Positions 2,431 through 3,396 of a stretch of DNA of 5,573 nt are shown piece by piece. The first letter of the stretch is position 1; every line of letters begins with the position of its first letter. The stretch is from Escherichia coli (lineage in GTDB: Bacteria > Pseudomonadota > Gammaproteobacteria > Enterobacterales > Enterobacteriaceae): assembly GCF_003334765.1 (NCBI RefSeq), contig NZ_QOWT01000064.1. One strand, written 5' to 3'. The position numbers and the translations under genes were made by a program. The notes under the pieces were generated by a model. It ran no database searches, had not been told where the DNA came from, and saw nothing but the letters and a program-made list of their open reading frames with translations.

Positions 2431-3396
2431 ATGAAAAAGAATAAGTACTCAACTCCCTTATGGATGCTTGCCACGATTCTTGCGGGTATGCTCTCCCCTA
2501 TGCAATCAGCGGTGAATGGTCAATTAGGTCACTGGTTACAGGATGGTAATGCATGCGCAGTTATCTCCTTTGCCAGTGGTTTAGTCGTGATGTTTTTTAT
2601 TATTATGGCGCGAAAAGAAACCCGGCAACAATTTGCGGCAATTCCTTCTCTGATTAAAAACCGAAAAGTTCCTCTCTGGAACTGGTTTGCCGGTCTCTGT
2701 GGAGCGATGGTGGTATTTTCTGAAGGCGCATCAGCCAGCGCACTCGGGGTCGCAACGTTTCAGACCGCACTGATCTCCGCGCTATTGCTGTCTGGTTTAC
2801 TTTGCGATCGCTTTGGTATCGGTGTCGACGAGAAAAAATACTTTACCCCTTATCGCATCATCGGTGCATTATTTGCGGTTATTGCTACGATTTTTGTTGT
2901 GTCACCGCAGTGGCATTCTACCTCTTTCATTTTACTTGCCATTCTTCCGTTCTTAGCTGGTTTGCTTGCAGGATGGCAGCCCGCTGGAAATGCAAAAGTA
3001 GCTGAAGCTACGGGATCCATGCTGGTTTCAATCACCTGGAATTTCATCGTTGGATTTTGTGTTTTAGGCACAGCGCTAGCTATTCGTGTCGCATTAGGGC
3101 ACGTCACTGTTCAATTACCAGATGTCTGGTGGATGTATCTTGGCGGCCCGCTTGGACTAATGTCTATCGGTTTAATGGCCATTTTGGTCAGGGGTCTGGG
3201 GTTACTGATGCTGGGGGTTGCTTCAACGGCGGGCCAGTTACTGGGATCAGTATTGATTGACGTATTAATTCCATCGCTGGGCAATACCGTTTATCTGGTC
3301 ACGATCATCGGAACACTGTTTGCACTGGTCGGTGCAATTGTTACCACTATTCCGGAATACAGAGCCTCGAAAACAATGAAGAAAATGGAGGTATAA
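2431..3396 (+). CDS. Inner-membrane protein with two tandem DUF606 (YdcZ-like, DMT-superfamily-like) repeats; putative transporter
   Basis: ATG 2431 with AAGGA at 2419-2423. 321 codons, highly hydrophobic. First half (P.Q.A.NGQLG ... PLWNWFAGLCGA ... LLCDRFGIG ... RIIGALFAVIATIFVV) and second half (AGWQPAGNAK ... WWMYLGGPLG ... GQLLGSVLIDVLI ... IIGTLFALVGAIVT) each match the YdcZ/DUF606 pattern recalled from E. coli YdcZ. Confidence 0.85.
   Translation: MKKNKYSTPLWMLATILAGMLSPMQSAVNGQLGHWLQDGNACAVISFASGLVVMFFIIMARKETRQQFAAIPSLIKNRKVPLWNWFAGLCGAMVVFSEGASASALGVATFQTALISALLLSGLLCDRFGIGVDEKKYFTPYRIIGALFAVIATIFVVSPQWHSTSFILLAILPFLAGLLAGWQPAGNAKVAEATGSMLVSITWNFIVGFCVLGTALAIRVALGHVTVQLPDVWWMYLGGPLGLMSIGLMAILVRGLGLLMLGVASTAGQLLGSVLIDVLIPSLGNTVYLVTIIGTLFALVGAIVTTIPEYRASKTMKKMEV

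Follow-up and report, generated by a model that had tools for sequence, protein, structure and literature searches.

An open reading frame in the stretch of Escherichia coli DNA analyzed here (5,573 nt, referred to as the window) had been described from its letters as a membrane protein with two DUF606 units in tandem. Such a protein raises the question whether it forms a complete transporter by itself and, if so, in which direction and for which kind of compound it works. We know of no DUF606/YdcZ transporter with an established substrate. The features of the gene and its neighbors are compiled in Table 1.

Table 1. Coordinates of the transporter gene, its domains and neighboring features in the window.
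Feature	Coordinates	Strand	Basis
rikA pseudogene, DeoR helix-turn-helix and PfkB ribokinase domains	392..1602	+	alignment to strain E10, translation
GATase1-like protein (PF07090), 252 aa, ortholog of STM3548 (PDB 2GK3)	1616..2374	+	PDB match E 6.9e-145
Stem-loop between GATase1-like and transporter genes	2382..2407	+	inverted repeat, dG -13 kcal/mol, z -4.2
Shine-Dalgarno sequence AAGGA of the transporter gene	2419..2423	+	direct reading; 7 nt before ATG at 2431
Fused DUF606/DMT_YdcZ transporter gene	2431..3396	+	ORF, 321 aa, ATG start
N-terminal DUF606 domain, aa 10-154, TM1-5	2458..2892	+	Pfam E 3.7e-30, AlphaFold2 helices, K+R distribution, conservation
C-terminal DUF606 domain, aa 169-303, TM6-10	2935..3339	+	Pfam E 1.3e-15, AlphaFold2 helices, hhalign against N-terminal half
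Phosphotriesterase-related (PTE-like) amidohydrolase, 344 aa, ortholog of Proteus mirabilis Pmi1525 (PDB 3RHG/4QSF)	3399..4433	+	PDB match E 1.1e-173

Duplication and predicted fold of the transporter

The tandem of two DUF606 units was borne out. Pfam finds two matches to DMT_YdcZ (PF04657, formerly DUF606), covering model positions 1-139/140 and 2-139/140, and the two halves of the protein are homologous to each other. E. coli K-12 YdcZ (b1447), whose 149 aa agree with the size of about 150 aa that had been given for proteins of the YdcZ type, aligned with both halves at E values of 3e-6 and 0.11. With two homologous domains in one chain the protein belongs to the fused DUF606 subclass of about 300–350 aa.

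Direct comparison of the N-terminal with the C-terminal half gave a BLASTP E value of 9e-5 and a Smith-Waterman score of 79, compared to 33.7 ± 5.6 for shuffled C-terminal halves (n = 2000, z 8.1). None of the 2000 shuffles reached a score of 79, and the reversed C-terminal half scored 35. Profiles of the two halves derived from 75 fused homologs were aligned by hhalign over 144 columns with a probability of 99.6% and an E value of 3.8e-24. BLASTP, shuffling and hhalign together demonstrate that the similarity goes beyond shared hydrophobic composition and that the halves are a genuine duplication. The preliminary description would have failed had self-alignment shown no significant similarity, which is not the case. 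Pairwise identity is a mere 22% over 158 aa, and this is what can be said for chance similarity or an artefactual fusion. A likeness merely as hydrophobic helix bundles, however, is refuted by Pfam, hhalign and the shuffles and retains next to no probability. The artefactual joining of two adjacent genes is ruled out with the same near-certainty by more than 100 representative homologs of 296–351 aa that align over their full length, showing that the fusion is ancestral and did not arise from sequencing.

Motifs common to both halves are Q.A.N (aa 25 and 183) and IG.LF (aa 144 and 293), and an aspartate ends TM4 and TM9 (D126 and D277, the second half reading DVLI). The longer patterns noted in the preliminary description held in part. 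Its starting motif P.Q.A.N..LG occurs in the first half (aa 23), the second half sharing only the core Q.A.N, and of its end pattern D..G/IG..L, D..G is found at aa 126 only and IG..L in neither half.

An AlphaFold2 model computed from a 75-sequence alignment (mean pLDDT 94, pTM 0.91) contains ten long helices, five per domain, spanning residues 7-36, 39-60, 82-105, 107-128 and 140-160 in the first and 164-194, 197-221, 233-256, 258-279 and 289-304 in the second domain. The loops of the N-terminal side contain 18 lysine and arginine residues and those of the opposite side a single one, which is a strong bias. The same bias was observed in 75 of 75 fused homologs, the means being 15.2 and 2.1. 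Applying the positive-inside rule, we predict an N-in/C-in orientation of the transporter, in which the first domain would be N-in/C-out and the second N-out/C-in. Since five is an odd number of helices, the second domain would lie upside-down relative to the first, and antiparallel five-helix domains as in the fused DUF606 subclass are thus also predicted here. The DMT-type topology proposed for the fused repeats, with eight to ten helices, agrees with the ten predicted helices and the inverted repeats.

The predicted model, with ten TM helices in two inverted five-helix repeats, can be superimposed on solved structures of the DMT superfamily. Fold-level matches were obtained with the ten-helix structures of TPT (5Y78), SLC35B1 (9GRY), LicB (7B0K) and YddG (5I20), which share 8–15% sequence identity with the transporter and belong to other Pfam families; their substrates are no guide here. 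The link to the DMT superfamily came from fold comparison alone, as the transporter alignment, run as a sequence profile against the PDB, returned nothing meaningful (best E 0.44). According to the model the protein would be a single-chain DMT secondary transporter consisting of two five-helix DUF606/YdcZ domains joined head to tail, and its ten-helix fold with pseudo-two-fold inverted repeats would enable alternating access. Single-domain YdcZ proteins would reach the ten-helix DMT fold only as dimers.

Conserved residues are Q25/N29 (TM1), E98 (TM3) and D126 (end of TM4) in the first domain and Q183/N187 (TM6), Q269 and D277 (both TM9) in the second, the Q25/N29 and Q183/N187 pairs being conserved family-wide. 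Judged by this conservation, the Q..N pairs of TM1 and TM6, the D126/D277 pair, Q269 and E98 are candidate functional residues. E98 (nt 2722-2724) lies halfway along TM3; the orthogroup has it without exception, and 62 of 64 distant fused DUF606 paralogs carry Gln at this site. As a buried carboxylate E98 could plausibly serve as a site of proton coupling, of substrate contact or of specificity.

Conservation and composition of the gene cassette

The transporter had also been assigned to a gene cassette. We assembled a synteny set of 80 loci, scanning one genome per species and calling neighbors by tblastn with the cassette proteins. The loci span Enterobacterales (Salmonella, Citrobacter, Klebsiella, Budvicia, Proteus, Providencia), Succinivibrionaceae, Lactobacillaceae, Bifidobacterium and many Actinomycetota. 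A GATase1-like gene (PF07090) is located upstream of the transporter in all 77 loci with enough flanking sequence, and a hydrolase follows directly downstream in all 79 loci reaching that far, PTE-like in 65 and of the CBAH family in 14 of them. This synteny, seen around homologs of 51–96% identity, supports the assignment. The order of genes in the window is that of the STM3547-STM3550 cassette as found in Salmonella, Citrobacter, Proteus, Providencia, Klebsiella and Budvicia, rikA being a pseudogene here.

All 14 loci of Lactobacillaceae and Bifidobacterium (L039-L052; at about 6960-8070 in most) carry a CBAH-family Ntn hydrolase in place of the PTE-like one, a non-orthologous swap that leaves the rest of the three-gene core conserved. 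On the bile-salt hydrolase and the penicillin V amidase models alike, the CBAH enzyme stays under the curated cut-off. At 12 loci from 6 genera an M20 ArgE/DapE-type deacylase is found beside the cassette (L047 4504-5667; L072 2825-3967; L084 2754-4145; nine more), which adds a third type of amide/ester hydrolase to those accompanying the transporter. When the ORFs of all 80 loci were clustered all-against-all, long stop-free frames of high-GC genomes confounded the result. Most additional clusters turned out to be LacI shadow frames or generic ABC ATPases, leaving the M20 deacylase as the sole real recurrent extra. A second transporter does not recur among the conserved neighbors of the 80 loci, and signal peptides are absent from the cassette enzymes, the CBAH protein beginning with MAC.

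In Enterobacterales the PfkB kinase and a DeoR helix-turn-helix form one fused protein (RikA), whereas the kinase stands alone in about 22 cassettes of Actinomycetota and 2 of Succinivibrionaceae. The stand-alone kinase reaches 270 bits on the ribokinase model TIGR02152, the cut-off of which is 299.65. We rejected the kinase as a core member, as it is missing from all cassettes of Lactobacillaceae and Bifidobacterium and from some of Actinomycetota. Regulators vary with the lineage and are of the DeoR-PfkB, LacI or AraC type, the LacI-type regulator being closest to CytR/RbsR. A cassette link for fused DUF606 proteins in general was likewise rejected, two paralogs of 34–38% identity being located in unrelated contexts. 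In Anaerobiospirillum (L006/L007 10786-16948) rpiB, a LacI regulator, a split transketolase and a TRAP transporter lie directly downstream of the cassette. This set is of the pentose-phosphate type and consistent with a pentose-related substrate; it may form a separate operon.

The GATase1-like protein, annotated as 'glutamine amidotransferase', lacks the nucleophile cysteine and has an invariant GGYLSF at the elbow (alignment A3); its invariant polar residues are E15, D28, H59, D76, D82, D153, D154, E157, D223 and H227. The protein is unlikely to be an amidotransferase. The gene of the PTE-like protein starts 2 nt past the stop codon of the transporter, with a GGAGG within the 3' end of the transporter gene. 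For its ortholog Pmi1525 only a promiscuous, metal-stimulated esterase activity has been reported (PMC5341072). Salmonella, Citrobacter and Klebsiella also have a hairpin at the position of the stem-loop upstream of the transporter gene, though of another sequence, and in Citrobacter a U-run comes after it. This candidate element may act as a partial terminator or in mRNA stability, setting the ratio of soluble to membrane protein. Scanned against Rfam, the window and five related loci yielded tRNAs only and no riboswitch or other RNA family that would name a ligand, and consensus scans for promoters and terminators stayed at background level.

RikA (STM3547) has been described as a ribokinase that phosphorylates ribose in vitro (PMC13432705). 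In the window its gene carries a 4-bp deletion after nt 1362 in comparison to strain E10, shifting the frame ahead of the GAGD catalytic motif so that this region is lost, and RefSeq flags rikA as 'frameshifted' in a strain carrying the identical transporter gene. Strain E10 in turn has a TAG at codon 81 and not the deletion of the window, which indicates that rikA was broken independently in different E. coli lineages.

Over all 5573 bases the window matches B2/APEC-type E. coli strains at 99.3–99.6% identity. The order of genes given by RefSeq is PfkB-family kinase or rikA pseudogene, glutamine amidotransferase, DMT family transporter, phosphotriesterase-related protein, gamma-glutamyltransferase fragment and disrupted ISL3 transposase. 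Remnants of IS2, IS66, IS110 and ISL3 border the cassette. Its flanks at 4477-5573 (minus strand) and 1-390 contain the frameshifted gamma-glutamyltransferase fragment, the disrupted ISL3 transposase and other IS remnants, and a strong inverted repeat at 4441-4467 separates the PTE-like gene from the ggt fragment. This IS-rich genomic island of the E. coli chromosome adjoins cobS/cobT, with cobS truncated.

Direction of transport and possible substrate

The preliminary description had left open whether the protein imports the substrate or exports the product of the cassette. We lean towards import, regarding the transporter, with some reserve, as the carrier by which an uncharacterised catabolic cassette takes up its substrate. 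In a cassette of rikA, the GATase1-like gene, the transporter and the PTE-like hydrolase, the transporter would import a small sugar-type compound, which would be passed on to the cytoplasmic hydrolase and, in most lineages, to a ribokinase-like kinase. One candidate substrate class would be an ester, amide or lactone conjugate of a ribofuranose-like moiety. A sugar-type ester, amide or lactone conjugate is suggested by the combination of a ribokinase-like kinase, RbsR/CytR-like repressors and interchangeable ester/amide hydrolases. The class may vary, since the cassettes of Lactobacillaceae and Bifidobacterium are devoid of the kinase and have a hydrolase of another superfamily. LicB, a choline-binding protein of the DMT superfamily, provides a precedent for import. 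RbsU is presumably a further member of this superfamily. It is encoded in the ribose operon of Lactobacillus sakei along with a ribokinase and a LacI-type repressor (PMC3146418).

The opposite direction, in which the transporter would export a product or toxic by-product of the cassette hydrolase (e.g. the released acid or alcohol) and take up no substrate, appears rather unlikely to us. YddG, RhtA and EamA are bacterial DMT exporters, YddG is among the structural matches of the transporter, and the Pfam name of PF04657 is 'putative inner membrane exporter'. In K-12, ydcZ overlaps mnaT, the gene of a detoxifying L-amino acid N-acyltransferase, by 4 nt (L011 5883-6847). The overlap suggests export of a modified compound by this single-domain relative, possibly of an acylated amino-acid analogue. 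However, the context of the fused transporter favors import: the cassette combines cytoplasmic enzymes and a sugar kinase with catabolic sugar-type repressors, and no other recurrent transporter is present that would supply the substrate. A kinase is moreover rare in export cassettes, as it traps the sugar in the cell.

It is also conceivable, though quite improbable, that the gene, although intact, lies idle in this E. coli lineage as a leftover in a decaying island and has no current physiological role. In this strain rikA is frameshifted and the island full of IS remnants, and the cassette may not operate. The premature stop in the other lineage and the gamma-glutamyltransferase fragment point the same way, and within E. 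coli the transporter gene shows just three differences, two non-synonymous and one synonymous, too few to show selection. Against an idle remnant, neither the transporter ORF with its Shine-Dalgarno sequence nor either flanking gene is damaged, 2008 of 5426 complete E. coli genomes carry the gene (37%; at least 95% identity and at least 80% coverage), and loss of the repressor-kinase need not silence the genes downstream.

Extending the uptake reading, the transporter and its GATase1-like partner may constitute the core of an unrecognised catabolic module for a ribofuranose-type ester, amide or lactone conjugate. Such a module would have been spread horizontally through at least three phyla of gut and soil bacteria, its hydrolase being exchanged non-orthologously (PTE-like or CBAH, sometimes with an M20 deacylase in addition). 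We put this forward tentatively and consider it possible but doubtful as a whole. If true, it would make this the first DUF606 transporter whose physiological substrate can be defined.

The lead that remains from this locus is the substrate of the widely transferred set of GATase1-like protein, fused DUF606 transporter and hydrolase. With its tightly conserved neighborhood of three or four genes, the orthogroup represents an unusually clean handle on a DUF606 substrate. Crystal structures of the GATase1-like (2GK3) and PTE-like (3RHG/4QSF) proteins and a kinase with measured ribose activity are at hand, and intact cassettes exist in the genetically tractable hosts Salmonella LT2 and Proteus mirabilis. 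Identification of the substrate would also explain why the genes have been retained in about a third of E. coli genomes.

Relation to known DUF606 proteins

The fused DUF606 architecture of the transporter is already known. As it is present in databases and literature, finding it here is of little consequence by itself. DUF606 genes are found singly, in pairs or as fusions of two domains according to Lolkema, Dobrowolski and Slotboom (J Mol Biol 2008), whose work is summarised in PMC3962082 and PMC4067407. In these accounts the family was used in 2008 to trace how membrane proteins with two antiparallel domains evolve and has since become a standard example.

In an exhaustive search of 1.84 billion representative proteins the transporter had 1424 matches at E ≤ 1e-3, and among the best 150 of these, 110 were at least 290 aa long, i.e. 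fused. The orthogroup is distinct: the identity of 51–96% among its members contrasts with only 28–38% to the next fused relatives. In comparisons with Klebsiella, Proteus and Anaerobiospirillum, pN of the transporter gene was 0.10–0.15 at saturated synonymous sites (pS 0.75–0.84), showing that it has been under strong long-term purifying selection. RefSeq labels all full-length E. coli records among the matches listed as 'DMT family transporter'. The protein is identical to WP_000739816.1 of strain WP2-W18-ESBL-10, and the gene is 100% identical at the DNA level. NCBIfam has no model for the transporter or for the GATase1-like protein. Full-text literature on STM3548, STM3549, STM3550, PF07090 and Pmi1525 yielded functional data limited to the 2026 paper on RikA and the mention of promiscuous esterase activity. 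In the RikA paper, STM3549 is described as a DMT family transporter of unknown function, its authors having found no studies of STM3548-3550 (PMC13432705).

The closest known counterpart is found in Salmonella Typhimurium, where STM3549 (P0005) is an ortholog with 93% identity, likewise annotated as DMT family transporter. The locus STM3547 (rikA)-STM3548-STM3549-STM3550 has a gene order identical to the four-gene cassette of the window. In comparison to the Salmonella locus, rikA of the window is frameshifted and the cassette is embedded in an IS-rich island beside cobS/cobT. E. coli K-12 YdcZ belongs to the same Pfam family, but it is a single five-helix domain that must dimerise to attain the DMT fold, and its operon with mnaT differs from the context of the fused transporter. 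The fused DUF606 proteins of Lolkema et al. 2008, as far as they are portrayed in the later accounts, have the same two five-helix domains in opposite orientation, the N-terminal domain being N-in by K/R bias. Measured against that portrayal, the orthogroup of the transporter differs from these fusions only by its conserved gene neighborhood and by signature residues such as E98.
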